Shown: piece by piece, positions 2,783 to 50,912 of the stretch
Position numbering within the stretch: position 1 is the first letter of the stretch
Layout: each line of letters begins with the position of its first letter
Assembly: GCA_036687665.1 (NCBI GenBank)
Contig: JAYYZZ010000003.1
Coordinates: forward strand, 68,129-132,128
DNA length: 64,000 bases
Direction of reading: 5' to 3'
DNA from: Pseudomonadota bacterium
Lineage (GTDB): Bacteria > Pseudomonadota > Gammaproteobacteria > Poriferisulfidales > JAYYZZ01
Program-made: the position numbers and the translations under genes
The notes under the pieces: generated by a model
What the model saw: only the letters and a program-made list of their open reading frames with translations
Database searches by the model: none
Told to the model about the DNA's origin: nothing

Positions 2783-2785
2783 TTG

Positions 2786-3190: not shown

Positions 3191-3198
3191 AGTGAATT

Positions 3199-3543: not shown

Positions 3544-3558
3544 ATACTGATTTTTACT

Positions 3559-31852: not shown

Positions 31853-31880
31853 TTGACTTAATGTCAATTCTAACAATAAT
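31853..31880 (+). promoter_or_regulatory. Candidate sigma-70 promoter of the dcw cluster (Pmra): TTGACT-16 nt-AATAAT
   Basis: -35 TTGACT at 31853..31858 and -10 AATAAT at 31875..31880, 60 nt upstream of mraZ. Confidence 0.4.
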
Positions 31881-31890
31881 AGTGCCCTTA

Positions 31891-31917
31891 AGTGGTCAAA
31901 AGTGGTCTCTTGTGGAA
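31891..31917 (+). promoter_or_regulatory. MraZ-operator-like triple direct repeat (aGTGGTc / aGTGGTc / tGTGGAa, 10-bp period)
   Basis: GTGGT at 31892 and 31902 and GTGGA at 31912, each followed by a 5-nt spacer. They lie between the candidate -10 and the mraZ ATG. Confidence 0.5.
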
Positions 31918-31940: not shown

Positions 31941-32399
31941 ATGATCAGAGGTATAAGCCAATTAGTCATCGACGACAAAGGTCGAGTCAAGATTCCTTCA
32001 CGCTACAGGGATATATTTCTTCGTGCGCCAGAACCAGTCTATCGCGTAGTGATAACTGTCGATCGGGATGGTTGTTTGCTTTTATACCCAGTCTCAGAGT
32101 GGGAGCGTGTCGAGAAGAACATAATGGAATTACCTAACTTAAATAAACAGGTTCGCAGAATTCAGCGTTTACTCTTTGGTCATGCTTGTGAGTTGGAGCT
32201 TGATGGGCAGGGGCGTGTAGTTATACCGCCTCCACTGCGGGAGTTTGCCGGTCTCGAGAAACAAGCTGTTTTGTGCGGGCAAGGAAATAAATTTGAATTG
32301 TGGTCAGAAGAAGTTTGGCTTGCTCAACGAGCAGCTTGGTTAAAAGAAGAGGAAGGAACGAACGAAATTAACAAAATTTTAGAATCTATAAAACTTTAA
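31941..32399 (+). CDS. mraZ: Transcriptional regulator MraZ
   Basis: 152 aa with two MraZ/SpoVT-AbrB repeats (DDKGRVKIP, DGQGRVVIP). Confidence 0.95.
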   Translation: MIRGISQLVIDDKGRVKIPSRYRDIFLRAPEPVYRVVITVDRDGCLLLYPVSEWERVEKNIMELPNLNKQVRRIQRLLFGHACELELDGQGRVVIPPPLREFAGLEKQAVLCGQGNKFELWSEEVWLAQRAAWLKEEEGTNEINKILESIKL

Positions 32400-32402
32400 T
32401 AG

Positions 32403-33341
32403 ATGGAGGGAACCATGTTGCGCCAACATACTTCGGTATTACTTAAGGAGTCCGTTAGTTCCTTGAATATAAAGAGGGATGGAATTTATGTCGACGCAAC
32501 GTTTGGGCGCGGAGGACATACTCAAGCCATACTAGAAAAGTTAGATTTGAACGGAAAGGTGATTGCATTTGACTGTGATCATGAGGCTAAAGATTTTGCA
32601 AAAGGGCATTTTGCACAAGATAAAAGATTTTTTTTTATTTCAAAACCTTTCTTATCCTTAAATCAATCTCTAGAGGAGATTGGTGCTAGTAAAAAAGTAG
32701 ATGGTGTCCTTTTAGATTTAGGTGTTTCTTCGCCGCAATTAGATAACCCAGAAAGAGGTTTTAGCTTTTTAGAAGACGGCCCCCTTGATATGCGCATGGA
32801 CACTAATGGCGGAGTAACCGCAGCTCAATGGCTATCGGATGCAAGCCCAGATGACATTAAGATGGTTCTAAAAGATTACGGAGAAGAAAGGTATTTTTCC
32901 CAAATATCAAACGCTATAATTAAGTTCCGTCAGACTGAGGCAATAAAGACTACCAAACAATTATCTGATCTTGTCTGCCGCGTTATTCCAAAAAAGGAAA
33001 GAAATAAACACCCGGCTACTCGCACCTTCCTTGCGATTCGTATCCACATAAATAACGAGCTAGATGCACTAACTAATGTACTCGAACAAACTTTGTCATG
33101 TTTAATTAAAGGAGGAAGGGTCGTAGTAATTAGTTTTCATTCATTAGAAGACAGGATTGTTAAAAGATTTTTCCGTCAATATAGTAAGCCTGAACCTACA
33201 TCTAAAAATTTACCACCCCCTTTGAAAGATTTTGTACCTCAGCTTGTTCAAGTTGGCAGCTTAACGAGGCCAACAGAAGAGGAGTGCGCAAGTAATCCGC
33301 GTGCTAGAAGCGCAAAAATGCGTGTTGCCGAAAAAATATGA
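32403..33341 (+). CDS. rsmH: 16S rRNA m4C1402 methyltransferase
   Basis: Motifs DATFGRGGH and DLGVSSPQLD. The start could be the ATG at 32415. Confidence 0.95.
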   Translation: MEGTMLRQHTSVLLKESVSSLNIKRDGIYVDATFGRGGHTQAILEKLDLNGKVIAFDCDHEAKDFAKGHFAQDKRFFFISKPFLSLNQSLEEIGASKKVDGVLLDLGVSSPQLDNPERGFSFLEDGPLDMRMDTNGGVTAAQWLSDASPDDIKMVLKDYGEERYFSQISNAIIKFRQTEAIKTTKQLSDLVCRVIPKKERNKHPATRTFLAIRIHINNELDALTNVLEQTLSCLIKGGRVVVISFHSLEDRIVKRFFRQYSKPEPTSKNLPPPLKDFVPQLVQVGSLTRPTEEECASNPRARSAKMRVAEKI

Positions 33342-33613
33342 ATATGAAAAATATTCTTATCGTTAGTTTGCTTGTTTTTTTAAATGTTATTAGCGCAATA
33401 AGCGTTATATTTTTTAAGCATGAGAATAAAGAACTATATAAAGATTTAGAGCAGCTGAATGACGAGTTTTATTCATTGCAAACAACTTATGGTCGCTTAC
33501 AGCTTGAGCAAAGCGCATATATTGCACCAGGAAGAATTGAGGGGTTGGCAAGAGAAAAATTAGAAATGGTAAAACCAAGTGAAAAACAAACTAGAAGAGT
33601 GATTGTTCCATGA
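33338..33613 (+). CDS. ftsL: Cell division protein FtsL
   Basis: 91 aa with a single TM helix plus a coiled coil, located between rsmH and ftsI. Confidence 0.85.
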   Translation: MNMKNILIVSLLVFLNVISAISVIFFKHENKELYKDLEQLNDEFYSLQTTYGRLQLEQSAYIAPGRIEGLAREKLEMVKPSEKQTRRVIVP

Positions 33614-35331
33614 AGAAAAGACAGACAAAAAAAACTTGTTGTTGGCAGCAAAATACTGTTTTTGTTTTTGTCATTTTCTCGATGCTGACTTTATTGTTTA
33701 AAATCTCTCACATAATTTTCTTTGATAAGCATGATTACAAAACCGAAGCACGTAAAAGACAAATCACTACGGTCAGTATCCCAGCACATAGAGGAAATAT
33801 AGTTGACAGGCATGGTGAGCCGATAGCTATTAGCACACCAGTAGACACTATAGGTGCAGTTCCAAAACAAGCTATTGGGTCTGCGACAGATCTGTCACAG
33901 CTAGCTCAACTACTAGGAAAAACAGAAGATAAATTAAAGCGCGATTTAAAAAATAAATCGCACAAGAAGTATATTATTTTAAAAAGACAGGTGAACCCGA
34001 CCATTGCGCAGAAAATAAAAGAATTAAAAATAAGCGGCATACATTTTAAGAAAGAATACAAGCGTTATTATCTAGGAGGAGAAACGGCATCACAACTTGT
34101 AGGAATAACAGATAAAGACGATGAAGGGCAGGAAGGGTTAGAGAAACTTTATAATGCTTTACTTAGAGGGGAGCCAGGAAAAAAACGCATATTAAAAGAT
34201 AACCTTCGCCATACTTTAAAAAATATTTCAATCTTAAAAAAACCAAAAGAAGGCCAGGATATAATTCTTAGCATTGATCGGCAGTTGCAGTACCAAGCTT
34301 ACCGAGATTTAAAATCTCAAGTTATTCGACATGGTGCATTGTCTGGATCTATAGTGGTGCTCGACCCATACAATGGACAAATTTTAGCTATGGCGAGCGT
34401 CCCAGCATTTAACCCAAACAAAAGAAGCGATTATTTTCCTGCTGGGATGAGAAATCGTGCAATGACAGATTTAATGGAACCAGGTTCAGTTATTAAACCA
34501 TTTACAGTTATTGCAGCTCTTGCCTCTGACCGTTTTAATTTAAGTACTACAATAGATACATCTCCTGGTACTTTCAAAGTTTCAAATTATGTAATTAAAG
34601 ATATACATGATAATGGGCAAACAAGTGTCGAAAATGTTCTCATAAAATCAAGCAACATTGGTTCTGCAAAAATAGCATTGGATCTTGAACCAAACGCAAT
34701 TAATACAATATTACATAAAGTTGGCTTTGGGCAAAACACTCAGTCAGGGTTCCCAGGAGAGATGAGTGGCACCTTGAAAGATTCAGAAAAACTTAGCAAG
34801 CACGAACTTGCAACACTTAGTTTTGGATATAATATGCAGGCAACATTGCTACAAGTCGCAAGAGCATATAGCGTTATTGCAACCGGTGGTTATTTACCCA
34901 CTATTAGCTTTCTGAAAAAAAATACAAAACCTGCCCGCGTACTCCCTGCAACACACACAAATGCTGTTTTAAGGGTATTGGAAAAGGTTGTTAGCAGTGA
35001 AGAGGGAACAGGTAAAAAAGCTAGAATTGCCGGATATACTGTGGCGGGTAAAACAGGAACTATAAAAAAATACAGTAGTAGCGGTGGTTATTCGGAAAAC
35101 AAATATATTTCTGCTTTTGCAGGGATAGCGCCCGCTTCCAACCCAAAATTGGTCTGCGTGGTTGTGATACATGAACCAAGCAAAGGTGTTTATTTTGGCG
35201 GTGAAATTGCTGCACCAGTTTTCTCAAAAGTTATGGAAGTTGCTCTCAGAAAATTTAATATATCTCCAGACATGTTCAAGCATAAAGATATACATATGGA
35301 TGGCAGCCAAGTTGCATGGAGCAGAAAATGA
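33610..35331 (+). CDS. ftsI: Peptidoglycan D,D-transpeptidase FtsI (PBP3)
   Basis: TM anchor and the motifs SVIK (SxxK), SSN and KTGT. Confidence 0.95.
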   Translation: MKKRQTKKTCCWQQNTVFVFVIFSMLTLLFKISHIIFFDKHDYKTEARKRQITTVSIPAHRGNIVDRHGEPIAISTPVDTIGAVPKQAIGSATDLSQLAQLLGKTEDKLKRDLKNKSHKKYIILKRQVNPTIAQKIKELKISGIHFKKEYKRYYLGGETASQLVGITDKDDEGQEGLEKLYNALLRGEPGKKRILKDNLRHTLKNISILKKPKEGQDIILSIDRQLQYQAYRDLKSQVIRHGALSGSIVVLDPYNGQILAMASVPAFNPNKRSDYFPAGMRNRAMTDLMEPGSVIKPFTVIAALASDRFNLSTTIDTSPGTFKVSNYVIKDIHDNGQTSVENVLIKSSNIGSAKIALDLEPNAINTILHKVGFGQNTQSGFPGEMSGTLKDSEKLSKHELATLSFGYNMQATLLQVARAYSVIATGGYLPTISFLKKNTKPARVLPATHTNAVLRVLEKVVSSEEGTGKKARIAGYTVAGKTGTIKKYSSSGGYSENKYISAFAGIAPASNPKLVCVVVIHEPSKGVYFGGEIAAPVFSKVMEVALRKFNISPDMFKHKDIHMDGSQVAWSRK

Positions 35332-36833
35332 TAGAAAATTTATCATCTGATAATGCAAAGCAAAAGCTATCTTTTTTACTAGAAGGTTTAGTGAACATTC
35401 AAAAAGACCATGATGTTTTAATAACAGGGATCCATCAGAACAGCAATGCAATAAAAAAAGGGGATCTTTTTATAGCAATCCCAGGCATTCGCACTCACGG
35501 TTTGAAATATGCAGATCAGGCAGTAAGTCAAGGCGCGGCCGCGATTGCATGGGAGCCAACAGAAGAAATATCTGATGACCCTATCTTTAAAATTCCATGC
35601 ATCAAAGTTGCAGGTTTACGCAAACAAACAGGTTTCATTGCCAGCAGATTTTATTCACATCCCTCTGAGCATTTGAAAGTTGTTGGCATTACAGGAACAG
35701 ATGGAAAAACTTCTGTTGCTGGGTTTGTAGCTCAGATATTAGATAACTTGGATAGAAAGTGCGGTCTTATTGGGACCTTAGGTTATGGTCACCTTTCTGC
35801 CCTCGAAAAATCAGTGCACACCACTCCTGAAGCAAATATTATTCAGAATGTTTTGTATAACATGGTGCAGTCGGGAGATATGTTCGCAGTATTAGAAGCG
35901 TCGTCTCATGGTCTTTCCCAGCACAGACTAAATGGTGTTTCATTTGATATTGCGGTATTAACTAATATTGGGAATGATCATTCCGATTACCACCCAAGCA
36001 AAGAAGATTATGTAAAAGCTAAACAAAAATTATTTGAAATTTCGTCACTACAAACTGCTATTTTAAATATTGACGATCTTTTTGGAGAGCAGCTCAGCAA
36101 ACGTTTATCTAATTCTGGCATTGAGGTCCATACTTGCAGCTCTTCAAACAAAAAAGCGGATGTTTTTTCTAAGAATATTCAATATACCAGCGAGGGTTTA
36201 GAATTTGATGTAGTAACCCCATGGGGTAGCAGCACGGTAAAAAGTCCGCTGTTTGGTGAATTTAATATTCAGAATTTACTTTTATCAATAGCTACCCTAT
36301 GTAGCCTTAAAGTTGATTATAAAAGTGTAATTAGGGTGCTCCCTTTGCTAATACCCGTGCATGGGCGGATGAACAAACTTGCTTCGAAAAAGCAAGCAAC
36401 AATATTTGTAGATTATGCACACACCCCCCAAGCTCTCGAAAACGCACTACATTCTATAAAACAACATTTCAGGTCACCTGTTTGCTGTGTATTTGGTTGT
36501 GGTGGGGATAGGGATGCAAAAAAACGTCCATTAATGGCAAAAGTTGCTGAACAATATTCACAGAGCATAATTGTTACTGATGATAATCCCAGGACTGAAG
36601 ACCCAAAAGGCATTGTGAAAGATATTATTTCGGGTTTTACTAACACACAAGAAGTTTCTGTGGTACATGATCGCGCGACTGCCATTAGGCAAGCTATTTC
36701 CAAGACAGCCGCATCAGAAGTTGTATTAGTGGCAGGGAAAGGGCATGAGGAAGAACAAATAGTCGGCGAAGAAAAACACCCTTTTGATGATATGAAATTT
36801 ATCCAAGAGTTCTTGCAGGAGATTGGGCAATGA
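35316..36833 (+). CDS. murE: UDP-MurNAc-tripeptide synthetase (meso-DAP adding)
   Basis: Mur ligase P-loop GITGTDGKTS and the DNPR motif (DDNPRTEDP). Confidence 0.95.
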   Translation: MEQKMIENLSSDNAKQKLSFLLEGLVNIQKDHDVLITGIHQNSNAIKKGDLFIAIPGIRTHGLKYADQAVSQGAAAIAWEPTEEISDDPIFKIPCIKVAGLRKQTGFIASRFYSHPSEHLKVVGITGTDGKTSVAGFVAQILDNLDRKCGLIGTLGYGHLSALEKSVHTTPEANIIQNVLYNMVQSGDMFAVLEASSHGLSQHRLNGVSFDIAVLTNIGNDHSDYHPSKEDYVKAKQKLFEISSLQTAILNIDDLFGEQLSKRLSNSGIEVHTCSSSNKKADVFSKNIQYTSEGLEFDVVTPWGSSTVKSPLFGEFNIQNLLLSIATLCSLKVDYKSVIRVLPLLIPVHGRMNKLASKKQATIFVDYAHTPQALENALHSIKQHFRSPVCCVFGCGGDRDAKKRPLMAKVAEQYSQSIIVTDDNPRTEDPKGIVKDIISGFTNTQEVSVVHDRATAIRQAISKTAASEVVLVAGKGHEEEQIVGEEKHPFDDMKFIQEFLQEIGQ

Positions 36834-38161
36834 GCTGGATTACGCTAGCAGAATTTTCCGAGATGGCAGGAGGGGAGCTCCTAGGAAGTGATAGAAATAT
36901 TGATTCTATTTCAATAGATACTAGGACAATTAAGGAAGGGCAATTATTTGTTGCCTTGCAAGGAGAAAATTTTGATGGACACGATTTTATAACACAGTGT
37001 GAGGATATTGCGGCAGGCGCGATGTTATCTAAAAAGATGGACGTAAATTGCTCACAAGTAATAGTGGACAACACATTCAGCGGGTTAAACAGCGCGGCTT
37101 TATGTTGGCGTAAGACACTGAATCTGCCAATAGTTGCACTGACGGGTAGCAACGGAAAGACAACTGTAAAAGAGATGATCACATCTATTCTGAGCGTGTC
37201 GGCTAATGTTTCGGCTACTGTAGGTAATCTTAATAACCATATTGGTGTTCCTTTAACACTTCTTTCGATAAGAAAGAAGCATGACTACGCAGTAATCGAA
37301 CTTGGTGCAAATCACCCAGGGGAAATAACAATGCTTTCTAAGCTTGCTAGCCCTGATGTCGCATTAATTACGAATGCCGCATCCGCGCATCTAGAAGGTT
37401 TTGGGGATATACAAGGTGTTGCAAAAGCTAAAGCTGAGATATTTAAATTTTTGAATCCCAATGGCGTTGCAGTCATCAATTCCGATGATAAGTTTGCAAA
37501 CTATTGGTCAGATATAGTGAGCGATATAAATCAAATTTCCTTTGGTATGGAAAAAAATGCAGATGTTTCTGCAGTTGAATTACCTCAGAGTAGAATAAAG
37601 ATTGTTCATAAAAACAAAAGTATTACTCTTTCTCTTCCTTTGCGAGGCAAGCACAATATTTATAATGCTTTAGCAGCATCAGCAGTATGTTTAGCATTGG
37701 GAATTTCTCTAGAAAACATTAAGCCGGGTTTAGAAAGCATAAAAACAACGGAAGGGCGCCTGAATTTTAAAAAAGGTATTCAGGGTTCATGTGTAATTGA
37801 TGATACATATAATGCAAACCCAGATTCTTTGAAAGCTGGCATTGATGTATTAAAAAGCTGTTCGGGAAGGCACTGGCTTGTTCTTGGAGATATGGCGGAA
37901 TTAGGAGATAAAACTAAAGATATGCATTATGTCTTAGGTGAACACCTGAAGAAAGAGGGAATTGAGAAAGTTTTTGCAATAGGAGATGCAAGTGCTGAGA
38001 CAATTCGTGCGTTTGGCGAAGGCGGGCAGCATTTTGAAGACCCTGACTCACTTTTTGACGAAATTCTTTTACATATAGACCCAACTGTAAACGTTTTAGT
38101 AAAAGGTTCTCGATTCATGCACTTAGAAAATATTGTTCAATTGTTAGTAGAGAGAAATTAG
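36830..38161 (+). CDS. murF: UDP-MurNAc-pentapeptide synthetase
   Basis: P-loop LTGSNGKTT, Mur ligase domains. Confidence 0.95.
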
Positions 38162-38174
38162 GCAGAGGGTAATC

Positions 38175-39254
38175 ATGTTATTAGAATTTTTTGAATATTT
38201 ATCAAATTACTATAGCGGGTTCAGCGTGTTTCAATATATAACGCTAAGAAGCATTTTGAGCGCTCTTACTGCAATCGTCATATCATTCTTAATAGGCCCT
38301 ATTGTGATCGAAAAACTTGCCTTAAGAAAAGTAGGAGAAGTAATTAGAGAAGAAGGACCTGAATCTCACTACAATAAAGCTGGCACTCCAACTATGGGTG
38401 GCATGTTGATTTTAATTTCTGTATTAACGGGAACATTGTTATGGACTGATTTATCAAATAGATACATATATATAGTTTTATTTGTAATGGTCTCGTTTGC
38501 AATTCTGGGAGGCTTTGATGATTACAAGAAAATCAAACTGAACAGCAAAGGGATGGCGGCTATTACAAAATTCTTTTGGCAGTCTGCAATATCATTTGTC
38601 GCTGTGTATATATTATATAAAACAGCACAAACTACTCCAGAAACACAATTAATTATCCCATTTTGGAAATCAATCGTTGTTGATCTTGGCGTATGGTTTA
38701 TTCCACTTTCATATTTAGTAATAGTTGCTACCAGTAACGCTGTCAACATAACTGACGGTCTTGACGGGTTAGCAATTATGCCCGCTATATTAATTTCTGG
38801 CGCACTGGCAATCTTTGCTTATGCTTCTGGCAATATAAATTTCTCGCATTATTTAGCTATTCCTTATTTGCCTTTAGCAGGTGAGCTAGTGGTTTTCTGC
38901 AGCAGTTTAGTGGGGGCTGGGCTCGGGTTTCTTTGGTTTAATACATACCCCGCGCAAATTTTTATGGGTAATTTGGGAGCTTTATCAATTGGTGCGGCTA
39001 TTGGTGTTATTGCTGTCTTGGTGCGACAAGAGATAGTTCTTATCATTATGGGTGGTGTCTTTGTTGTTGAAACCCTATCTGTAATTGGCCAAGTTGTATC
39101 TTACAAGCTTACAGGAAAAAGAATTTTTTTAATGGCTCCATTGCATCATCACTTTGAATTAAAAGGTTGGCCAGAGCCTAGGGTTATCGTGAGATTTTGG
39201 ATTATAACCGTAATTCTGGTTTTAGTTAGTTTAGCTACATTGAAAGTGCGTTAA
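38175..39254 (+). CDS. mraY: Phospho-MurNAc-pentapeptide translocase
   Basis: 359 aa polytopic protein with the motifs [13 protein letters not shown] and PLHHHFE. Confidence 0.95.
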
Positions 39255-39302
39255 TTTAAAAAGTATGTTTGTTTTTCCATTTAAACAAGGGGGGACCTAA
39301 AT

Positions 39303-40613
39303 ATGGCAAACACAACTGATAGAGGTAATGACCTTTTTGAACTCATGGATACTCATGAGCAAACTGCGGTCATCAAAGTAATGGGTATCGGCGGTGGCGG
39401 AGGTAATGCCGTCCAACACATGGTGAATTCATGTGTAGAGGGCGTTGACTTTGTTTGCGCAAATACTGATGCTCAGGCCCTGAAAAATTGTACTGCTAAA
39501 ACTTTGTTACAGCTAGGTGGTGGCATTACTAAAGGGTTAGGAGCAGGAGCAGATCCAGAAATAGGAAAGCAGGCAGCATTAGAGGATCGAGACATCATTA
39601 AAGAAGTTATACAAGATACGGATATGCTGTTCATTACCGCTGGTATGGGAGGAGGCACAGGTACGGGCGCTGCTCCTGAGATTGCTAAAATTGCTAGAGA
39701 AATGGATGTTTTAACTGTTGCCGTTGTAACTAAGCCTTTTAAATTTGAAGGAGATAGGCGGATGAAGGCTGCAGTCAAAGGTATTGAAGAACTTGGGCAA
39801 CATGTAGATTCTTTAATTACAATTCCAAACGAGAAGTTAGTAACATGTTTGGGCGAAAACGTCACACTTCTAAATGGTTTTAAAGAGGCAGATAATATTT
39901 TATTTGGAGCAGTTCAGGGTATAGCTGAGCTTATAACACGCCCTGGGCTAATCAATGTTGATTTTGCTGATGTTAAAACTGTTATGGCTGAAACGGGAGT
40001 AGCAATGATGGGTACAGGCTCAGCATCAGGTTCTAATCGGGCGGTGGAAGCAGCAGAAAATGCTATTAACAGTCCTCTGCTGGAGGATATAAATGTTGTA
40101 GGAGCTGCTGGCGTATTGGTAAATGTTACTGCAGGTCCTGATTTGCAAATCTCTGAGTATGAGGCGGTTGGGGCTACTATAAGTTCTATAATGCGCGACA
40201 ATGCAACAGTAGTAATTGGTAATGTCATTGATCCTGCAATGATTGATGACTTGCGTGTTACATTAGTAGCTACAGGTCTTGATGCTAGTGCTTCTTCTTC
40301 GCAAGGAGAGCAGGAGACGGAAGCAACACATCTAGAAGAAGCTGCACCTGATGTTTCGGATCAAAATATTGCTGTTGAGGCACAACCAGAATTTGAGGTT
40401 GCGCATGAAGAAGAAACTCAAGAGCTTATTTTTGAAGAATCTGAGGATCAATACATTGAATCTGAGATGACCGTCAGCGGAGACACTATAAGCGAAGACA
40501 CTATAAGCGAAGATACTGTAAGTGTTACTGAAGCAGATCCAGATCCCGACGATGCAGATTATGAGCGAAAGGATCTAGATGTGCCTGCTTTTTTAAGGAG
40601 ACAAGCTGACTGA
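39303..40613 (+). CDS. ftsZ: Cell division GTPase FtsZ (non-canonical position in the dcw cluster)
   Basis: Tubulin signature GGGTGTGAAP, an acidic linker and the C-terminal peptide DLDVPAFLRRQAD. SD AAGGGGGGA upstream. Confidence 0.95.
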   Translation: MANTTDRGNDLFELMDTHEQTAVIKVMGIGGGGGNAVQHMVNSCVEGVDFVCANTDAQALKNCTAKTLLQLGGGITKGLGAGADPEIGKQAALEDRDIIKEVIQDTDMLFITAGMGGGTGTGAAPEIAKIAREMDVLTVAVVTKPFKFEGDRRMKAAVKGIEELGQHVDSLITIPNEKLVTCLGENVTLLNGFKEADNILFGAVQGIAELITRPGLINVDFADVKTVMAETGVAMMGTGSASGSNRAVEAAENAINSPLLEDINVVGAAGVLVNVTAGPDLQISEYEAVGATISSIMRDNATVVIGNVIDPAMIDDLRVTLVATGLDASASSSQGEQETEATHLEEAAPDVSDQNIAVEAQPEFEVAHEEETQELIFEESEDQYIESEMTVSGDTISEDTISEDTVSVTEADPDPDDADYERKDLDVPAFLRRQAD

Positions 40614-40681
40614 TTAATTTTCTAATATAACCAAGAACTGCAAGGTATTCTTGTAATAGTGGCGTTATGCTATAGGGCTAT

Positions 40682-42016
40682 ATGACACAAAAAACATATA
40701 AAACCGTCATTATAGGTCTCGGTGAAACGGGTCTTTCGGTTGCTAGATATTTAGCAAAAAAAGATGTAACTTTTGCAGTCTTTGATACTCGGGATTCCCC
40801 CCCTAAATTAGATGATTTCAAATCTGAAATGCCTGATGTCGAAATAGCTCTGGGATCTTTTAATGATGATTTGCTAAACGGAACTAACAGTATCATCGTA
40901 AGCCCAGGAGTACCGTTATCACACCCCCTATTGTTACAAGCAAAAAAACAAGGAATTAAAATTGACAGCGATATAGGAATTTTTTGCGAGGCAGCAGCGG
41001 CTCCTATAATAGGTGTCACTGGTTCCAATGGAAAAACCACAGTAATCACTTTATTAAAAGCAATGCTTGGAGATTCAGCATTAGAAATTTCGACCGGGGG
41101 CAACATAGGAGACCCTGCGCTTGGTTTGTTATGTGACAAGAGCCCTGATTACTATCTTCTTGAATTATCGAGCTTTCAGTTAGAGGCAACCCAACACTTG
41201 AAAACAAAAATTTCTTCTATTCTAAATATTACTCCTGACCATATAGATCGGCACACAGATTTTGATGCATATGTAAAAGCTAAACAACGCTTGTATGAGG
41301 ATACAGAAATTGTAGTTTTTAATAGGCATGATCAAAATACATATTCAAATTCTATAAGCAGAAAAGTAAGTTTTGGTTTAGATGAACCAAACAATGATAG
41401 TGAGTATGGCATTAGGAGTAATCGCGGAGCCGCCTGGTTATGCAGAGGCAAAGAGAGGTTAGTAGCTGCGAGTGATTTACATTTTTATGGACAGCATAAC
41501 TTGCTCAATGCGTTAGCTACGCTTGCAATTATAGAATGTTTAGAAATTCCACTGGATAATCTTATTCCGACCCTAAAAAACTTTCAGGGGTTGCCTCATA
41601 GGACGAATCTAATTTTTAGCAAGGATGACATAAATTGGTACGATGACTCTAAAGCTACTAATGTTGGCGCTACTTTAGCAGCATTACAGAGTTTTTCACG
41701 AAAGAATATTTTAATTTTAGGAGGTCAGTCAAAAGGGGCTGATTTTTCGATATTACGTGAAGCCATTTTGTTGCATACAAATGCAGTAATACTTCTTGGG
41801 GAGGCGGCACAAGAAATCGAAGAAGCATTGTCTGATACTGTTCCATTTTTCCATGCCCAAGACATGCGGTCTGCAGTATCAAAAGCACGCGAATTAGTTA
41901 GACCCGGCGAGAATGTTCTCCTATCTCCCGCCTGCGCGAGTTTAGATATGTACCAAGATTATATACATCGAGGTAATACTTTTATTAAACATGTTGCAGA
42001 GCAGAGTGATGGGTAA
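40682..42016 (+). CDS. murD: UDP-MurNAc-L-Ala--D-Glu ligase
   Basis: N-terminal Rossmann motif GLGETGLS and P-loop VTGSNGKTT. Confidence 0.95.
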   Translation: MTQKTYKTVIIGLGETGLSVARYLAKKDVTFAVFDTRDSPPKLDDFKSEMPDVEIALGSFNDDLLNGTNSIIVSPGVPLSHPLLLQAKKQGIKIDSDIGIFCEAAAAPIIGVTGSNGKTTVITLLKAMLGDSALEISTGGNIGDPALGLLCDKSPDYYLLELSSFQLEATQHLKTKISSILNITPDHIDRHTDFDAYVKAKQRLYEDTEIVVFNRHDQNTYSNSISRKVSFGLDEPNNDSEYGIRSNRGAAWLCRGKERLVAASDLHFYGQHNLLNALATLAIIECLEIPLDNLIPTLKNFQGLPHRTNLIFSKDDINWYDDSKATNVGATLAALQSFSRKNILILGGQSKGADFSILREAILLHTNAVILLGEAAQEIEEALSDTVPFFHAQDMRSAVSKARELVRPGENVLLSPACASLDMYQDYIHRGNTFIKHVAEQSDG

Positions 42017-43187
42017 GAGAACTTCACAGAAAAAGCCACTGGCATATCAGCTCAAACCATACGTTAATCTCAGAATATTATTGACTGTATTTTTTTTGAT
42101 TGCGATAGGTTTAATTATGATGACGTCTGCTTCAATGGATGTTGCAGAGACTAAGAATGCGAGCGACTCACTGTTTTATTTGAAAAGACAGCTAGTTTTT
42201 TTTCTTATAGGGATTACTCTGGTTATATTTATCTATCAAATAAAACTTGAATATATAGAAAGAAATGCGCTGTTAATGTTATTTCTAAGTATTTTCTTAT
42301 TGGTAATTGTGTTATTACCAGGTATTGGGAAAAGCGCAAATAATGCACAAAGATGGTTAAGCCTCGGACCTTATTCTTTCCAACCTTCTGAGTTAGTCAA
42401 AATCTTTTTTATTATTTATCTTTCTAGTTATATTTCTAGATATAAAGAAAATATTCAGCAGCATTTTTCAGCTTTTATAAAACCTATTTTGTTGGTTTCT
42501 ATATTGGCGCTTTTGTTACTTCTAGAGCCTGATTTTGGAACAATGATACTTATATTGTGTATCACTACTGGAATGCTTTTTTTAGCTGGAGCAAAAGTGT
42601 GGCATTTTTTGATATTGTTTTCTATAGGCACACCTATAATTTTATATATGATTCAAGCCCCATACCGCTGGAATAGATTAACCGCCTTTTTAGATCCTTG
42701 GCAGGATCAATATGATACTGGTTATCAGCTTGTGAATTCTTTGATTGCTATCGGTAGCGGTGGAATCTTTGGCCTTGGTCTCGGAAACAGCATACAAAAA
42801 TTAGGTTTTTTACCTGAACCTCATACAGATTTTATTTTCGCTATTACAGCTGAAGAATTAGGATTGCTGGGAGCTATATTTGTTATATTGCTTTATTTAA
42901 TATTCTTTTTTGAATCTTTTAAATTAGCAAAAGAGGCGCAAAGGCTAGAAAAACATTTTGCTAGTTTTTTAGCATTTGGTATCAGCATCTGGTTTGTATT
43001 GCAGGCTTTCATAAATATAGGAGTAAATATAGGACTTTTGCCAACTAAAGGGCTTACTCTCCCATTAATGAGCTATGGTGGTAGCAGCTTCGTCGTTGCT
43101 TTATGTGCAATTGGTTTTTTATTACGCATACATAGAGAGAACTATTTAACATATTTATCGAGGCCTGTTTCTAGGAGGAGGAATTAG
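41991..43187 (+). CDS. ftsW: SEDS peptidoglycan polymerase FtsW
   Basis: About 10 TM helices, with PSE..K and PTKGLTLPLMSYGGSS blocks. The start may be 42009. Confidence 0.9.
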   Translation: MLQSRVMGKRTSQKKPLAYQLKPYVNLRILLTVFFLIAIGLIMMTSASMDVAETKNASDSLFYLKRQLVFFLIGITLVIFIYQIKLEYIERNALLMLFLSIFLLVIVLLPGIGKSANNAQRWLSLGPYSFQPSELVKIFFIIYLSSYISRYKENIQQHFSAFIKPILLVSILALLLLLEPDFGTMILILCITTGMLFLAGAKVWHFLILFSIGTPIILYMIQAPYRWNRLTAFLDPWQDQYDTGYQLVNSLIAIGSGGIFGLGLGNSIQKLGFLPEPHTDFIFAITAEELGLLGAIFVILLYLIFFFESFKLAKEAQRLEKHFASFLAFGISIWFVLQAFINIGVNIGLLPTKGLTLPLMSYGGSSFVVALCAIGFLLRIHRENYLTYLSRPVSRRRN

Positions 43188-43196
43188 GAGTGTTCG

Positions 43197-44291
43197 TTGA
43201 GAAATAGCAATAAACCAGTAATGCTTTTAGCTGGTGGCACCGGCGGTCACGTCTTCCCAGCCCTTGCAGTTGCAAATTATTTATCAAGCAAGGATGTTCC
43301 CATAGTATGGGTTGGCACAAAAGGTGGGGTGGAGGCAAAGCTTGTAAATCATCCAAATATAGAAATGGAATGGTTATTTGTCAGCGGGCTAAGAGGGAAA
43401 AAATTTGTAAGTTGGATTAAAGCTCCTATTTTTCTTTTTATAGCAGCTTTGCAGTCCGCATTCATGCTTTTAAAATACAGGCCTTGTATTGTACTAGGTA
43501 TGGGGGGATTTGTTTCAGGCCCTACAGGGATTATCGCCGCGTTATTCGGCGTGCCATTATTTATACACGAGCAAAATACAATACCTGGTTTAACGAATCG
43601 AATCTTAAAAATATTTAGTAAAAAAATATTCCTTGGCTTCCCTGACAGTATAAACAGCAAGAAAGCAGTTTATACCGGTAACCCGCTTAGACAAGATATA
43701 TGTGATATTGAAGAACCCCCTAATAGATTATCGAGAGATGGGGCACAATTGCACTTATTAGTTGTAGGAGGCAGCCTTGGGGCTAAGATTTTTAATGAAG
43801 TAGTCCCGCACGCGTTAAGCCTAATACCTGAAGATCAAAGGCCTGCAGTGCAGCACCAAGCTGGGAAGACTTTAGGTGTTGCCCAAGCAAACTACAACCA
43901 ATATGGTGTTCAAGCCAATATTATTGAGTTTATAAATGATATGTCAGACGCATATGTGTGGGCTGATATTGTGCTTTGCAGAGCTGGCGCTTTAACAGTT
44001 TCAGAGCTAACAGCAGCAGGCGTGGCATCAATATTAGTTCCTTACCCTTATTCAGTTGATAATCATCAGCATCATAATGCGTCTTTTTTAGTACGCGCCG
44101 AAGCAGCTATTTTAATGTTAGAGGAAAATTTCTATGCAAAAGAGCTTGCTGCAAAACTACAAATGTTTTCAACTAATAAAGAGCGCATATTAACTATGTC
44201 AACCAATGCGCGTAATTTATTTAATACAAATGCTGTTTTTTCTATATGTGAATCTATTTTAGAAGCAAGAAGAGAAGCCTTTGAAAAATAA
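43197..44291 (+). CDS. murG: Lipid II synthase MurG
   Basis: Motif GGTGGHVFPALAVA. TTG start with AGGAG 6 nt upstream; an ATG at 43221 is an alternative. Confidence 0.95.
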   Translation: MRNSNKPVMLLAGGTGGHVFPALAVANYLSSKDVPIVWVGTKGGVEAKLVNHPNIEMEWLFVSGLRGKKFVSWIKAPIFLFIAALQSAFMLLKYRPCIVLGMGGFVSGPTGIIAALFGVPLFIHEQNTIPGLTNRILKIFSKKIFLGFPDSINSKKAVYTGNPLRQDICDIEEPPNRLSRDGAQLHLLVVGGSLGAKIFNEVVPHALSLIPEDQRPAVQHQAGKTLGVAQANYNQYGVQANIIEFINDMSDAYVWADIVLCRAGALTVSELTAAGVASILVPYPYSVDNHQHHNASFLVRAEAAILMLEENFYAKELAAKLQMFSTNKERILTMSTNARNLFNTNAVFSICESILEARREAFEK

Positions 44292-44319
44292 GTTAAATAC
44301 AGTATCTGATTCAAGTCTC

Positions 44320-45705
44320 ATGCAGAGAGTTTCGAAGATCCATTTAATTGGAGTTGGAGGGGCAGGCATGTGTGGGATAGCTGAAATTTTATACAACCTT
44401 GGTTATGAAGTTTCTGGCAGTGATATAAAAAGCACTAAAACAATTGAGAGACTTCAGAAAATTGGCGTTAAGACTTATGTGAGACACGATAAAAAACATG
44501 TAGATAAAAAAGATTTAGTAATTGTATCTGCTGCAATACCTTCTGATAACGTAGAGCTCATTGAATCAAAAAAGAGAAAAATACCAATAATGAAGCGAGC
44601 AGAGATGCTTGCTGAGCTCATGCGTTTAAGATTTGGCATCGCGGTTGCAGGTACGCATGGAAAAACATCAACTACAGGTTTAATCGCTCATATAATGGAA
44701 CACGCAGGCATGGATCCAACTATCATAGTAGGAGGGCGCATAAATGAGATAAAAACAAACGCTCGCTTGGGTGATAGCAAATATTTGGTTGCTGAAGCAG
44801 ATGAGAGTGATGGGTCTTTTTTGCATTTGCATCCCACCATGTCTGTGATAACCAATATTGATACTGATCATCTCAGTAGCTATAAGGATGATTTTTCATT
44901 GTTAAGAAAAGCTTTCCTTGATTTTATACACAATCTTCCTTTCTACGGGCTTGTAGCATTATGCATTGATGACAAGACATTACAGGAACTGTTGCCTGAG
45001 ATTAAAAGATCATTTGTTACTTGTGCGATTAATTTCGACGCAGACTATCGTGCGGTGAATATCAGATATGAAGGTCTTAGTTCTATTTTTGATATTGTGG
45101 TAAAAGCAACAAATGAAAGATTCACAGTGGAACTAAGTTTGCCCGGTGAGCACAATGTCCTCAATGCTTTAGCTGCTATTGCAATTACGACAGAGCTAGG
45201 TATAGATAAAGAGCATATCAAAACCGCTTTACAAGAATTTCAAGGAACGGGCAGGCGTTTTGAGTTAAACGGGGAGCTTCAGTTGCAAAAAAAGAAGGTA
45301 GTATGGGTGGACGATTATGGCCATCACCCTACAGAAATTTTAGCAACGATAAAAACTGCAAGAATAGTCTGGCCAGAAAAGAGACTGATCGTAGTTTTTC
45401 AGCCCCATAGATATTCTCGAACTTGTGAAATGTTTGAAAATTTTGTTGATGTTTTAAATCAAGCTGACATATTAATCTTGTTAGAAATATACTCAGCAGG
45501 TGAGGATCGTATAGCTGGAATAAATAGTTTATCTTTATGTAATGCAATAAAAGAGAGAAAAGGCGCGCAAGTTATTTTTGAGGAGAATGAAGAAAAATTA
45601 CTGGGCACGCTTGAGAATCTGGCAAGCACGAACGATTTGCTTTTAACCATGGGGGCGGGGAGTATCAGTTCTATAGTGAAACAATTATCAAGTAGATTAA
45701 TATAA
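44320..45705 (+). CDS. murC: UDP-MurNAc--L-Ala ligase
   Basis: Motifs IHLIGVGGAGMCGIAEIL and VAGTHGKTSTT. The track ORF starts at a TTG at 44281, overlapping murG. Confidence 0.95.
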   Translation: MQRVSKIHLIGVGGAGMCGIAEILYNLGYEVSGSDIKSTKTIERLQKIGVKTYVRHDKKHVDKKDLVIVSAAIPSDNVELIESKKRKIPIMKRAEMLAELMRLRFGIAVAGTHGKTSTTGLIAHIMEHAGMDPTIIVGGRINEIKTNARLGDSKYLVAEADESDGSFLHLHPTMSVITNIDTDHLSSYKDDFSLLRKAFLDFIHNLPFYGLVALCIDDKTLQELLPEIKRSFVTCAINFDADYRAVNIRYEGLSSIFDIVVKATNERFTVELSLPGEHNVLNALAAIAITTELGIDKEHIKTALQEFQGTGRRFELNGELQLQKKKVVWVDDYGHHPTEILATIKTARIVWPEKRLIVVFQPHRYSRTCEMFENFVDVLNQADILILLEIYSAGEDRIAGINSLSLCNAIKERKGAQVIFEENEEKLLGTLENLASTNDLLLTMGAGSISSIVKQLSSRLI

Positions 45706-45712
45706 ATTAATT

Positions 45713-46624
45713 ATGAAAAACACGATTGATAATTTACTTAAATCAGAAAAAATTAGAGGAGTTCTAGCTAAAGATGTGTCAATGAAGAAATATAATTCAT
45801 GGCGCGTAGGGGGCTTTGCTGAATATCTATATAAACCCTATGATGCCGATGACCTAAGCATTTTTTTACAATTAATAAAAGAGAAGAAAAAAATTACATG
45901 GATAGGGTTAGGCAGCAACATTTTAGTTCGCGACCAAGGAATTGAAGGTGTTGTTATTGTGTTACATCCATCGTTAGGAAAAATTATATTTTTACAAAAC
46001 AATACAGTTTATGTAGAAGCAGGAGTTTCATGTGTAAAACTTTCACAAAGATGTGCAGAAAAGAATCTCACAGGTATTGAATTTCTATCAGGAATACCCG
46101 GGACAGTCGGAGGTGCACTCGCAATGAATGCTGGCGCTTATGGTAGCGAGATATGGGATTTTGTTCATGATGTTAAAATATTAGATTCAAATGGGGTTAT
46201 GTATCAGCGCACAAAAAAAGATTTTGATATAAATTACAGAGAAGTTTCATTATCCCAAAACGAGTGTTTTGTCGCTGCACATCTAAGTTTAGAAAAAGCA
46301 GGAAATGATTTGCAGCCGATTGAGAAAATCAAAGTCTTCAAAAAAGAGAGGAGTAGTGTCCAGCCCGTCGGGGCGCCTAGCTGCGGTTCTGTTTTTAAAA
46401 ATCCAGCTGACACTTCAGCAGGTACTTTAATTGAACGTGCAGGATTAAAGGGATATAAGGTTGGTAGAGCCGAAATTTCTAAAAAACATGCTAATTTTAT
46501 AATTAATACTGGGGAAGCTAAGGCTGCAGATATAGAGTCTCTTATTTTACATATTCAAAGTACAGTAGAAAAAAAGTTTAGAATTAAGTTAGAAACAGAA
46601 GTTAAATTTATTGGTACACGTTAA
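45713..46624 (+). CDS. murB: UDP-N-acetylenolpyruvoylglucosamine reductase
   Basis: FAD-binding PCMH domain and a GSVFKNP block. Confidence 0.9.
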   Translation: MKNTIDNLLKSEKIRGVLAKDVSMKKYNSWRVGGFAEYLYKPYDADDLSIFLQLIKEKKKITWIGLGSNILVRDQGIEGVVIVLHPSLGKIIFLQNNTVYVEAGVSCVKLSQRCAEKNLTGIEFLSGIPGTVGGALAMNAGAYGSEIWDFVHDVKILDSNGVMYQRTKKDFDINYREVSLSQNECFVAAHLSLEKAGNDLQPIEKIKVFKKERSSVQPVGAPSCGSVFKNPADTSAGTLIERAGLKGYKVGRAEISKKHANFIINTGEAKAADIESLILHIQSTVEKKFRIKLETEVKFIGTR

Positions 46625-47577
46625 TGACAGAAGTAAAAGCAAAAGACTTTGGCAAGGTGCTTGTATTGATGGGGGGGTGGTCCGCTGAACGAGAGATTTC
46701 GCTCAATACTGGAAAGGCTGTCTTAAAAGCCTTAAAAGAGAGTAATGTTGATTCTGAAGGTTTCGATTTAACAGCCGATAACCTAGAAACATTGAAAAGT
46801 ATCGAGTTTGATAGAGCTTTTATAGCTCTGCATGGAATGGGCGGTGAAGATGGTTTTATACAAACTTTTTTGGAGACCTTAAATATCCCCTATACCGGGA
46901 GCGATGCAAATGCATCTGCAGTATGCATCAATAAAGCTAAAACGAAGTCGATATGGAAAGACATGGGTATATCCACGCCAGATTATGTAATAGTTGATAG
47001 TAATACGCTAGAAGATGCTGTCATTGAAACGATTCAGCTGCCTGCTGTTATAAAGCCTGTTTTCGAGGGTTCTAGTCTAGGTATAAGCATTGTTCACAAT
47101 CACGACCAGATTTCTCCAGCTATTAAGAATGCAATGAGCTACGGGCAGCAAGTTTTAGTTGAGTCTTTTGTCCAAGGTTCCGAATATACTGTAGGCATAC
47201 TGCGGGGCAACGCATTGCCAATGATAAGGTTAGAGCCAAGTAATGAATTTTATGATTATGACGCAAAATACCACTCACATGAAACGCTGTATCATTGTCC
47301 TTGTGGTTTGGAAGCAGAAGTTGAAGAAAGTATTTCAAAAATCGCACTGAAAAGTTTTTCACTGACTGGAGCAGCAGGGTGGGGAAGAGTGGATTTGATA
47401 ATAGATAAGTTTGGACAGCCTTGGTTTATAGAAGTTAATACGGTGCCTGGCATGACAGACCATAGCCTCGTTCCTATGGCTGCAAAACACGCAGGCATTA
47501 ATTTTCAAGAACTTGTTCTTGAGATACTAGCAACTTCTTTAAATAAGAATATAAGGAAAGAAAGTGAAACAACTTAG
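46624..47577 (+). CDS. ddl: D-alanine--D-alanine ligase
   Basis: ATP-grasp fold with the motifs ALHGMGGEDG and EVNTVPGMT. Confidence 0.95.
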   Translation: MTEVKAKDFGKVLVLMGGWSAEREISLNTGKAVLKALKESNVDSEGFDLTADNLETLKSIEFDRAFIALHGMGGEDGFIQTFLETLNIPYTGSDANASAVCINKAKTKSIWKDMGISTPDYVIVDSNTLEDAVIETIQLPAVIKPVFEGSSLGISIVHNHDQISPAIKNAMSYGQQVLVESFVQGSEYTVGILRGNALPMIRLEPSNEFYDYDAKYHSHETLYHCPCGLEAEVEESISKIALKSFSLTGAAGWGRVDLIIDKFGQPWFIEVNTVPGMTDHSLVPMAAKHAGINFQELVLEILATSLNKNIRKESETT

Positions 47578-48280
47578 CCGCTTACAAAAAAATAAAATAT
47601 TTTCTTCATTTATTCAGGTATTTGCTGTAATTGTTATCCCTATCTCAGTTTTACTTACGTACGAAAGAATTAATGATTCTCACTCTTTTCCAATTGATAC
47701 CGTACGAGTCTCTGGTAGCTTAAGTAATATTAAGACTGATGATATAGAAAAATTAATTAATCCAGTTCTAAAAAATAACGGTTATTTCACTTTAAATTTA
47801 TTTGATCTTCAAAATGTATTAAACAAACTAGTTTGGGTAAAAGAGGTGAATGTCAGAAAAGTATGGCCATCGGAAGTGCAAATTTCCATTGTAGAAAATC
47901 AAGCAATAGCTAATTGGAATGAGAATAGTTTATTAAATAGTGATGGCGAGATCTTTAAACCCCTTTATCTAACACCTGATCTGCCTGTAATCCATGGAAA
48001 CGATGGGCGTGAAAAAAAACTATTAGCCACATATATTCATGCTAATAACATTATTGAAAAAAGTGGGTCGAGCATTAGAAGAATTGAAGAAAACAATAGG
48101 AGATCTATAAAGCTTTATTTAGATAATCATATTGTGATTTATTCTGGAGATACTAAGGAGCTTAATAGCAATTTACAGAGTTTTGTAGTTGCATATAATT
48201 TATTTGATACTACACTTAAGCATAATATATCGTATATTGATTTACGCTATCCTAATGGTTTTTCCGTTGGGTGGAAATAA
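47564..48280 (+). CDS. ftsQ: Cell division protein FtsQ
   Basis: 238 aa with a TM anchor and a POTRA-like domain. GTG start, located between ddl and ftsA. Confidence 0.85.
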   Translation: MKQLSRLQKNKIFSSFIQVFAVIVIPISVLLTYERINDSHSFPIDTVRVSGSLSNIKTDDIEKLINPVLKNNGYFTLNLFDLQNVLNKLVWVKEVNVRKVWPSEVQISIVENQAIANWNENSLLNSDGEIFKPLYLTPDLPVIHGNDGREKKLLATYIHANNIIEKSGSSIRRIEENNRRSIKLYLDNHIVIYSGDTKELNSNLQSFVVAYNLFDTTLKHNISYIDLRYPNGFSVGWK

Positions 48281-48295
48281 AAGAAGAAATATAAT

Positions 48296-49534
48296 ATGGC
48301 ACGCAAACAAGATAAAAATATTTTAGTTGGACTCGACATTGGGACCTCAAAAGTCACAGCTATTGTTGGCGAAATGAGCCCTGATGGTGAAATTGAAATT
48401 ATAGGTGTTGGCTCTCGTATTTCCACAGGTTTAAAAAGAGGCGTGGTAGTGAATATTGAACTGACTGTTCAGTCAATACAACGAGCCATAGAGGAAGCAG
48501 AATTAATGGCTGGATGTGACATTACCTCAGTAGTTGCTGGAGTCGCTGGCAGTCATATACAAAGTTTAAATTCCCATGGCGTTGCAGCAGTAAAAGAAAA
48601 TGAAATAACACGCAATGAAGTTGAAAAAGTTATTGAATCGGCGCGCGCAATGGCCATTCCTGCAGAACATAAAATATTGCATGTTCTTCCACAAGAATAT
48701 GTAATCGATGGGCAGGCAGGCGTGAAAGTGCCAGAAGGTATGTCTGGAATACGCCTAGAAGCAAAAGTTCATATCATCACTGGAGCTCTCAGTGCAGTAG
48801 AGAATATTATCAGATGTGTTACAAGGTGTGGTTTAGAAGTTGAAAATGTAGTGCTTGAGCAATTAGCTTCAAGCCATTCAGTTTTAACAGAGGATGAGAA
48901 AGAACTTGGCGTGTGCTTGGTTGATATTGGTGGCGGTACAACTGATATAGCAGTTTTTACAGATGGCGCATTACATCATACATCTGTTATCCCAATTGCC
49001 GGCGACCAAGTTACCAATGATATTGCTGTTGCGTTTAGAACACCCACAAAAGATGCAGAAGATATTAAAATTCAATATGCATGCTCGTCTGCGCAGCTTG
49101 TTAATAGCGACGAAACAATTGAAGTTCCAAGCGTTGGGGATCGCCCACCAAGAAAACTTTCCAGACAGCGACTAGCAGATATAGTTCAGCCACGCTATGA
49201 AGAACTTTTAACTTTTGTATTAAAAGAACTAAGACGCAGTGGTTATGAAGATAGAATTCCTGCAGGAGTAGTTTTAACAGGCGGGAGTTCTAATATGGAA
49301 GGTTTAGCTGATCTTGCTGAAGAAATATTTCATTTGCAAGTTCGTGTTGGGTCCCCACAATATGTTTCCGGTTTAGTTGACATTGTAAAAAATCCTATTC
49401 ATGCAACTGGGGTAGGTTTATTGTTATTTAGTCGTGATGATAATAAATCTTTGACGCTGAATGCCAATGGCGGAAGCATGCAATTAAATTCCATTTGGGA
49501 AAGCATGAAGAGCTGGTTTCAGCAAAATTTGTAA
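48296..49534 (+). CDS. ftsA: Cell division protein FtsA
   Basis: Actin-fold protein with the motifs LDIGTSKV and VDIGGGTTD, plus a C-terminal amphipathic helix. Confidence 0.95.
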   Translation: MARKQDKNILVGLDIGTSKVTAIVGEMSPDGEIEIIGVGSRISTGLKRGVVVNIELTVQSIQRAIEEAELMAGCDITSVVAGVAGSHIQSLNSHGVAAVKENEITRNEVEKVIESARAMAIPAEHKILHVLPQEYVIDGQAGVKVPEGMSGIRLEAKVHIITGALSAVENIIRCVTRCGLEVENVVLEQLASSHSVLTEDEKELGVCLVDIGGGTTDIAVFTDGALHHTSVIPIAGDQVTNDIAVAFRTPTKDAEDIKIQYACSSAQLVNSDETIEVPSVGDRPPRKLSRQRLADIVQPRYEELLTFVLKELRRSGYEDRIPAGVVLTGGSSNMEGLADLAEEIFHLQVRVGSPQYVSGLVDIVKNPIHATGVGLLLFSRDDNKSLTLNANGGSMQLNSIWESMKSWFQQNL

Positions 49535-49689
49535 AGTTTAGTCATTTTTCCACACAATTGACTACTTTTAGTCCGTGATTCAGTCTGTATTTGCCTAATT
49601 AAGCTTTCTAAAATATAAGGTCTTTACTATAATATCTCTACGTGATCTGTATTTTTACAGACAAGTCAAAAATATAACAAGAATAAAAC

Positions 49690-50897: not shown

Positions 50898-50912
50898 ATA
50901 TGGTAGGTAATT

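Follow-up and report, generated by a model that had tools for sequence, protein, structure and literature searches.

Introduction

The order of genes in the dcw cluster (named for division and cell wall) is a textbook example of how strictly gene order can be conserved, and division in model bacteria depends critically on the FtsZ:FtsA ratio. In canonical clusters of the Escherichia coli/Pseudomonas type, the order ends with ddl-ftsQ-ftsA-ftsZ-lpxC. Here, the dcw operon was analysed in a 64,000-nucleotide stretch of contig JAYYZZ010000003.1 (the whole stretch is referred to as the window), in which ftsZ was found between mraY and murD instead. The host is an uncultured marine gammaproteobacterium, represented by a metagenome-assembled genome (MAG) of 918,116 bp (4 contigs, 86% complete, 38% GC). 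Its genome size was estimated at about 0.9-1.1 Mb and was judged reduced.

Published work on dcw clusters stresses the conserved order and describes gene loss or fragmentation (PMC8871954, PMC8136486). The closest published analogue of the present locus is the minimal division cluster of Mycoplasma genitalium, mraZ-mraW-MG_223-ftsZ (PMC8475190). Both loci belong to reduced genomes and carry ftsZ a few genes from a promoter under MraZ control (putative in the window), but in M. genitalium this proximity came about via loss of the intervening cell-wall genes, whereas the window keeps all of them. Relocation of ftsZ inside the operon was not found reported in a literature search. The mraY|murD position is apparently a new slot in a recurrent, small-genome-linked rearrangement of ftsZ, unpublished as far as searched.

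Compared with the canonical cluster, the window has the same gene set on one strand, the same tight packing, a candidate Pmra-like promoter with repeats resembling MraZ boxes in front, and the same genes downstream (lpxC, an M23 peptidase gene and secA). Only ftsZ is out of place. It lies upstream of ftsQ and ftsA and approximately 8.9 kb closer to Pmra, and is therefore out of reach of any promoter within ddl, ftsQ or ftsA.

Gene order of the dcw operon

Genes were identified from the open reading frame (ORF) map and by scans with NCBIfam profiles (Table 1). The order on the + strand is mraZ-rsmH-ftsL-ftsI-murE-murF-mraY-ftsZ-murD-ftsW-murG-murC-murB-ddl-ftsQ-ftsA-lpxC. On this strand, 16 genes, ftsZ among them, run contiguously from mraZ to ftsA and are continued by lpxC (31941-50601), after which come the M23 peptidase gene and secA. 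All genes from mraZ to lpxC exceeded the curated cut-off of their NCBIfam equivalog, which is 295 bits for FtsZ (TIGR00065). The profile matches of MraY and MurD run end to end, and the genes flanking ftsZ are therefore not truncated. From mraZ to ftsA, genes overlap or lie at most 15 bp apart, save for the two spacers around ftsZ. The canonical end of the cluster was not encountered in the window, as ftsA is followed directly by lpxC.

The FtsZ protein of the window contains both FtsZ domains (PF00091 and PF12327), the GGGTGTG motif and the C-terminal peptide DLDVPAFLRRQAD. A search of the whole four-contig, 918-kb genome returned a single ftsZ copy. These results agree with the sequence-only reading, which had described a complete ftsZ with its signature and C-terminal peptide between mraY and murD, spacers of 48 and 68 bp, a gap of 155 bp between the ftsA stop and lpxC, and canonical positions for all other dcw genes; the ORF coordinates matched exactly, and the gene identities were borne out by the equivalog assignments. 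Within the linker region of ftsZ, a 15-nt tandem repeat (AGCGGAGACACTATA / AGCGAAGACACTATA) was observed at window positions 40476-40505.

Junctions in independent assemblies

An identical FtsZ is encoded by 8 contigs, and the samples behind them number at least 7. Seven contigs besides that of the window were compared (3 from ENA metagenome assemblies, 4 from Logan assemblies); they carry the same ftsZ neighbours and, along 2.9-21.3 kb, are colinear with the window at 99.906-100% identity (0-16 single-nucleotide differences). Among the contigs that reach the respective junction, mraY|ftsZ was exact in 7/7, ftsZ|murD in 6/6 and ftsA|lpxC in 3/3. Misassembly, named earlier as a possible source of the unusual order, was excluded by this reproduction of the junctions. 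Likewise, neither a second ftsZ nor a pseudogene remnant after ftsA was found, the former by the genome search and the latter by comparison of the 155-bp ftsA-lpxC spacer with 101 FtsZ queries.

Position of ftsZ in the host's order

The order to which the host belongs comprised 53 species genomes; families compared within it are designated f1 to f4, with the window genome in f1 (one species). In f2 and f4 (46-67% GC, 1.2-3.0 Mb), ftsA lies directly upstream of ftsZ in 18/18 loci, and 7/7 full clusters are canonical throughout. In f3 (28-30% GC, 0.7-1.2 Mb), all 13 of 13 genomes from 3 genera have the order mraZ-rsmH-ftsL-ftsI-ftsZ-murE-murF-mraY-murD-...-ftsQ-ftsA-lpxC. The corresponding values for f1 are 38% GC and 0.9 Mb.

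For phylogenetic placement, MraY, MurD, FtsW, MurG, MurC, Ddl, FtsA and LpxC were concatenated (3,035 columns, 43 taxa) and analysed under LG+C20 with posterior mean site frequencies. The topology was (f4,(f2,(f1,f3))), with SH-like approximate likelihood ratio values of 100 for f1+f3 and 99 for the order, and f1 still fell within the order when f3 was left out. A sister relation of f1 and f3 is therefore likely. The two are reduced, AT-rich families, both lacking the ftsA-ftsZ adjacency, and their ftsZ slots differ.

Both families have ftsZ, and no other gene, displaced from the ftsA|lpxC site to an upstream position within the operon; in both, lpxC comes after ftsA and the FtsZ linker is long. 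The f3 slot is three genes further upstream. Whereas ftsZ of the window is bordered by 48 and 68 bp, the ftsZ start in f3 overlaps the ftsI end by 11-20 nt (L118 4998-5017, L123 4995-5005) and a spacer of 117-160 nt precedes murE; the overlap suggests translational coupling of ftsI and ftsZ. The families also differ in that f3 consists of abundant marine plankton with many species and great microdiversity, and f1 of a single population. Among 5.8 billion proteins, f1 FtsZ has no relatives in the range from its own 90% cluster down to about 59-60% identity. Two scenarios of two events each would account for the different slots: either ftsZ departed once in the f1/f3 ancestor and later made a short hop past murE-murF-mraY, or it moved independently in f1 and f3.

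One f3 genome has ftsZ in two open frames, comprising residues 10-171 and 181-383 (G011:C5:62170-63308), attributable either to a frameshift or to faulty assembly of this MAG.

Survey of ftsZ position and genome size

For the class-wide survey, 250 Gammaproteobacteria genomes, sampled evenly and at least 90% complete, were searched with a concatenated FtsA+FtsZ query, followed by three further searches. Among genomes larger than 1.5 Mb, ftsA and ftsZ are adjacent in 222, ftsZ is relocated within the operon in none and detached from it in 4 (G113, G278, G206, G285), and 1 case was left unresolved. Among genomes of at most 1.5 Mb, the genes are adjacent in 12, ftsZ is relocated within the operon in 3, to which the window genome is to be added, no ftsZ is detached, and again 1 case was left unresolved. 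Neither ftsA nor ftsZ is present in two genomes of 0.3-0.4 Mb. Relocation inside the operon was thus seen in 3/15 small genomes (4/16 with the window genome) and in 0/226 larger ones. Fisher's test gave p = 5e-4 with partial denominators and the window genome left out; with full denominators (3/15 vs 0/226), p was about 2e-4 by hand calculation. The boundary of 1.5 Mb equals the largest genome size among the relocated cases.

The three relocated genomes of the sample were fetched and annotated. G250 (1.5 Mb, 49% GC) has the order ftsZ-mraZ-rsmH-...-ftsA, G210 (1.1 Mb) mraZ-rsmH-ftsZ-ftsI-...-ftsA-lpxC, and G090 (0.9 Mb) ftsZ-rsmH-ftsI-...-ftsA. A genome of 2.4 Mb from the same family as G250 (G060) has the canonical dcw order. 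In G250 itself, ftsZ lies approximately 34 bp directly upstream of mraZ, ahead of the usual Pmra position (L138, G250:C5:41500-61499, 2166-3785). In SAR86, a MAG and a single-amplified genome (L103/L104, 6400-21100) show mraZ-rsmH-ftsQ-ftsA-ftsZ-ftsI-murE..., where the whole ftsQ-ftsA-ftsZ block has moved; SAR86 may contain more than one rearranged dcw type. The window shares with these loci an otherwise intact dcw cluster, an ftsZ displaced toward the 5' end, a genome of 0.9-1.5 Mb and the presence of MreB, but the other loci belong to different lineages and all have their slots right at the start of the operon. Each relocated case uses a different slot, and mraY|murD was seen in the window genome only. 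On the dcw tree, at least 3 origins of the relocated state are needed.

In a gammaproteobacterial background set of 80 other loci, ftsA lies directly upstream of ftsZ in 74, a contig edge interrupts 4, and 2 (Myxococcota) have no neighbouring gene recognised by the query set. The adjacency check of this set revealed no upstream ftsZ slot; the two SAR86 loci with the moved ftsQ-ftsA-ftsZ block belong to it.

With a single in-operon ftsZ upstream of the canonical site, ftsA abutting lpxC and a size of 918 kb, the window genome shares these features with the relocated small genomes. The structural part of the earlier interpretation (ftsZ alone displaced in an otherwise canonical operon, no scars) was upheld. 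The move is not an isolated local anomaly, since the sister family f3 and unrelated small-genome lineages also have ftsZ upstream, in other slots; this makes the window an instance of a trait that recurs at the level of lineages.

Two further ideas were discarded. A place for G210 within the f1+f3 clade was supported at first, but this genome jumped to the long SAR86 branch when f3 was left out, which points to long-branch attraction. Loss of rod shape, in the sense of a Tamames-type link between shape and gene order, does not explain the relaxed order, as every rearranged genome tested has an MreB that scores above the cut-off.

The detached ftsZ genes of the 1.9-2.3 Mb genomes (G113, G285 (family f65), G278/G106 (family f58) and G206) lie 24 kb to 1.3 Mb from the dcw cluster, and in family f58 ftsZ is very divergent (33% identity) or was not found. 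A tandem duplication of ftsZ directly after ftsA (ftsA-ftsZ-ftsZ) was observed at G239:C4:24068-27451. At L119 (G038:C2:534660-554659), most dcw genes are in two or three fragments, which look like indel errors of long-read assembly rather than true pseudogenes.

Origin of the relocated gene

The GC content at third codon positions (GC3) of ftsZ is 0.277, inside the range of its neighbours (0.22-0.33). Repeats in 38900-49900 were short chance ones only, and no direct or inverted repeat links the junctions. Extra ORFs were not present, and insertion by a mobile element, which would call for flanking repeats, a transposase gene or a target-site duplication, is not indicated. The absence of repeats or mobile-element scars at the junctions, which had been noted before from the sequence, is thus confirmed for the scanned region. 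The 155-bp spacer between ftsA and lpxC contains no ftsZ remnant detectable with the 101 FtsZ queries, and it shows no sequence similarity to the flanks of ftsZ. In a tree of 100 FtsZ sequences, the window protein was on a long branch without supported placement and without a donor clade. Approximately unbiased (AU) tests on the FtsZ alignment rejected neither an f1+f3 clade (p-AU 0.30) nor monophyly of the order (0.57). The native GC3, the lack of linking repeats, of a remnant and of a donor clade, and the AU results together argue for relocation of the native ftsZ.

Spacers, promoters and ribosome-binding sites

For the mraY-ftsZ, ftsZ-murD and ftsA-lpxC spacers, predicted RNA folding did not differ significantly from that of shuffled sequences (z = +0.98, +0.87 and -0.81, respectively). 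Terminators were not in excess above chance in the region, and no + strand terminator-like site was found on either side of ftsZ. The Pmra-like site upstream of mraZ was assigned by position, because promoter-like sites were no commoner in the AT-rich region than in its shuffles (60 found, 59.6 expected). The GTGG repeats next to it resemble an MraZ operator (MraZ boxes) in sequence and may represent one. From this promoter, ftsZ is approximately 7.4 kb away, compared with approximately 16 kb at the canonical site; the earlier estimate of about 9 kb for the gain in proximity compares with a value of about 8.9 kb.

Shine-Dalgarno duplex energies were -11.0 kcal/mol for ftsZ, the strongest among the dcw genes with ATG start, and -1.8 kcal/mol for ftsA, among the weakest of the dcw genes. 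An altered expression relationship between FtsA and FtsZ, as proposed in the sequence-only reading, is plausible, and the predicted Shine-Dalgarno strengths agree with it.

Table 1. Positions of the dcw genes, spacers and candidate signals in the window.
Feature	Position	Strand	Basis
Pmra-like sigma-70 promoter (TTGACT-16-AATAAT), upstream of mraZ	31853-31880	+	consensus scan, 10/12 matches
3 GTGG repeats, 10-11 nt period, just downstream of -10 box	31892-31915	+	direct reading; unique in window
mraZ-rsmH-ftsL-ftsI-murE-murF-mraY block, canonical order	31941-39254	+	ORFs, NCBIfam; gene spacings -16 to +13 bp
mraY	38175-39254	+	ORF; TIGR00445, 426 bits, full profile covered
Weak promoter-like site TTGAAA-18-TATGTT, overlapping mraY-ftsZ spacer	39240-39269	+	consensus scan, 9/12 matches
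mraY-ftsZ spacer, 48 bp, strong Shine-Dalgarno AAGGGGGG	39255-39302	+	sequence
ftsZ, 436 aa, intact, sole genome copy	39303-40613	+	TIGR00065, 405 bits
ftsZ-murD spacer, 68 bp, weak 5-6 bp hairpin only	40614-40681	+	sequence; fold z = +0.87
murD	40682-42016	+	ORF; TIGR01087, 389 bits
murD-ftsW-murG-murC-murB-ddl-ftsQ-ftsA block, canonical order	40682-49534	+	ORFs, NCBIfam; spacings -26 to +15 bp
Best promoter-like site of region, within ftsQ 3' end, upstream of ftsA	48172-48199	+	consensus scan
ftsA	48296-49534	+	ORF; TIGR01174, 507 bits
ftsA-lpxC spacer, 155 bp, vacated canonical ftsZ site	49535-49689	+	sequence; fold z = -0.81
lpxC	49690-50601	+	ORF; TIGR00325, 398 bits

Proposed explanation and alternatives

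The locus is best explained as a fixed relocation, within the operon, of the native single-copy ftsZ in a reduced genome, by which ftsZ would have become wired to the Pmra transcript; a probability of roughly 0.7 was assigned to this explanation. The gene would have been moved by a swap of adjacent blocks. The likeliest route would be a tandem duplication of murD to ftsZ, followed by loss of the first copy of murD to ftsA and of the second copy of ftsZ, since on this route the cell would at no stage be without an essential gene. In its new position, ftsZ would be an internal, co-transcribed gene of the Pmra transcript. A high level of FtsZ relative to FtsA could then be set by the promoter-proximal position together with the very strong ribosome-binding site of ftsZ and the weak one of ftsA. 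Such wiring by position and ribosome-binding site would take the place of the ftsQAZ region with its multiple promoters in E. coli-type bacteria, and its simplicity may be tolerated or favoured in streamlined genomes with few regulators.

Several points weigh against this explanation. In the databases, the f1 family is represented by a single species-level population, and the arrangement is traceable only within that population. The relation of f1 to f3 was obtained in a quick search with 8 linked genes and compositional heterogeneity, and in the single-gene tree of FtsZ the position of f1, on its long branch, is unresolved. The association with genome size is based on few events, with a boundary set by the largest relocated case. 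Duplication followed by loss predicts remnants in the spacers, and none were detected. Both co-transcription and the FtsZ:FtsA protein ratio are predicted from the DNA, and a weak promoter-like site lies immediately 5' of ftsZ. As the genome is 86% complete, a second ftsZ elsewhere has to be considered, although it is unlikely.

A chimeric join that misplaced ftsZ might be suspected of a source that is a four-contig, incomplete MAG. However, all junctions were identical in the 7 colinear contigs, which were obtained in several studies through 2 assembly pipelines (ENA and Logan) and represent no fewer than 7 samples, and the genes flanking ftsZ are of full length; an assembly or binning artefact is hardly conceivable. 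Xenologous replacement, in which an ftsZ of foreign origin entered at the mraY|murD junction and the native gene behind ftsA was subsequently lost, would fit the failure of the FtsZ single-gene tree to group the window protein with its own order. It would also fit the identities in the conserved core of FtsZ, which are 68-70% to Chromatiales/Ectothiorhodospiraceae and 59-62% to FtsZ from within the order. Yet the lower identities within the order arise because those relatives are fast-evolving or compositionally extreme (28-30% or 60-67% GC). In addition, the long, unresolved branch of f1 leads to no supported donor clade, the AU tests reject neither f1+f3 nor monophyly of the order, and GC3 and overall composition are like those of the neighbours. 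Over its full length, the long C-terminal linker can be aligned with f3 FtsZ, which does not hold for f2/f4. A foreign origin is consequently very unlikely.

More weight has to be given to alternatives that accept the relocation itself but differ in its regulation or its cause. A promoter in the mraY 3' end and the 48-bp spacer could drive ftsZ as a unit of its own, with autonomous regulation kept. The promoter-like site found there and the size of the two ftsZ spacers, the largest gaps in the mraZ-ftsA block (others -26 to +15 bp) and hence with room for signals, are in line with this. On the other hand, the site matches the consensus at 9/12 positions only and belongs to a class no commoner than in shuffles (60 vs 59.6), terminator-like structures were found on neither side of ftsZ, and in the sister family f3 the overlap of ftsZ with ftsI by 11-20 nt leaves no room for a promoter. 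Regulation as a separate unit was considered unlikely. Neutral relocation, where regulators and internal promoters are lost in reduced genomes and block swaps drift to fixation with no benefit for expression, was rated a little higher and still only as somewhat unlikely. Relaxed constraint predicts what was seen in the survey, namely moves restricted to small genomes and a different slot each time, and canonical order is kept in most small genomes (12/16). Against drift, ftsZ of small genomes always stays in the operon and on the same strand, the four detached cases all being in 1.9-2.3 Mb genomes; the arrangement is stable across the whole family f3 (13/13); and the strongest Shine-Dalgarno sequence among ATG-start genes at the new ftsZ site suggests tuning.

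Implications

As a tentative extension of intra-operon relocation, it is possible that after genome reduction has removed the ftsQAZ regulators, selection repeatedly draws ftsZ to Pmra, so that position and ribosome-binding site alone set the FtsZ:FtsA ratio. If this holds, the f1/f3 pair would record two successive hops after one departure, or two independent moves, and in either case the place of an essential gene in its operon would act as an evolvable means of setting dosage, linked to genome streamlining.

The relocated loci are natural experiments in which ftsZ has been freed from ftsA and the ftsQAZ promoters with the other genes in place, and they show which parts of the architecture are dispensable. 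The restriction of in-operon ftsZ moves to genomes of at most 1.5 Mb ties operon architecture to genome streamlining. With f1 and f3 as sisters with different slots, a compact system is available for studying how protein stoichiometry is governed by the place of a gene in a long operon. The in-situ growth of marine bacteria is indexed by the abundance of ftsZ transcripts (PMC13349992); lineages that differ in the operon position of ftsZ may not be comparable by this index.

Neighbouring genes

Upstream of the dcw operon, a TP_methylase/rsmI-like ORF at window positions 30389-31279 is shortened from 296 to 231 aa by a 1-base indel in one independent contig (L031 1282-1977), which is due to either strain variation or an assembly error. 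Downstream, a small DciA-family gene (PF05258) on the - strand (window 50598-50948) converges on the lpxC end, the stop of which it overlaps by a few bases.

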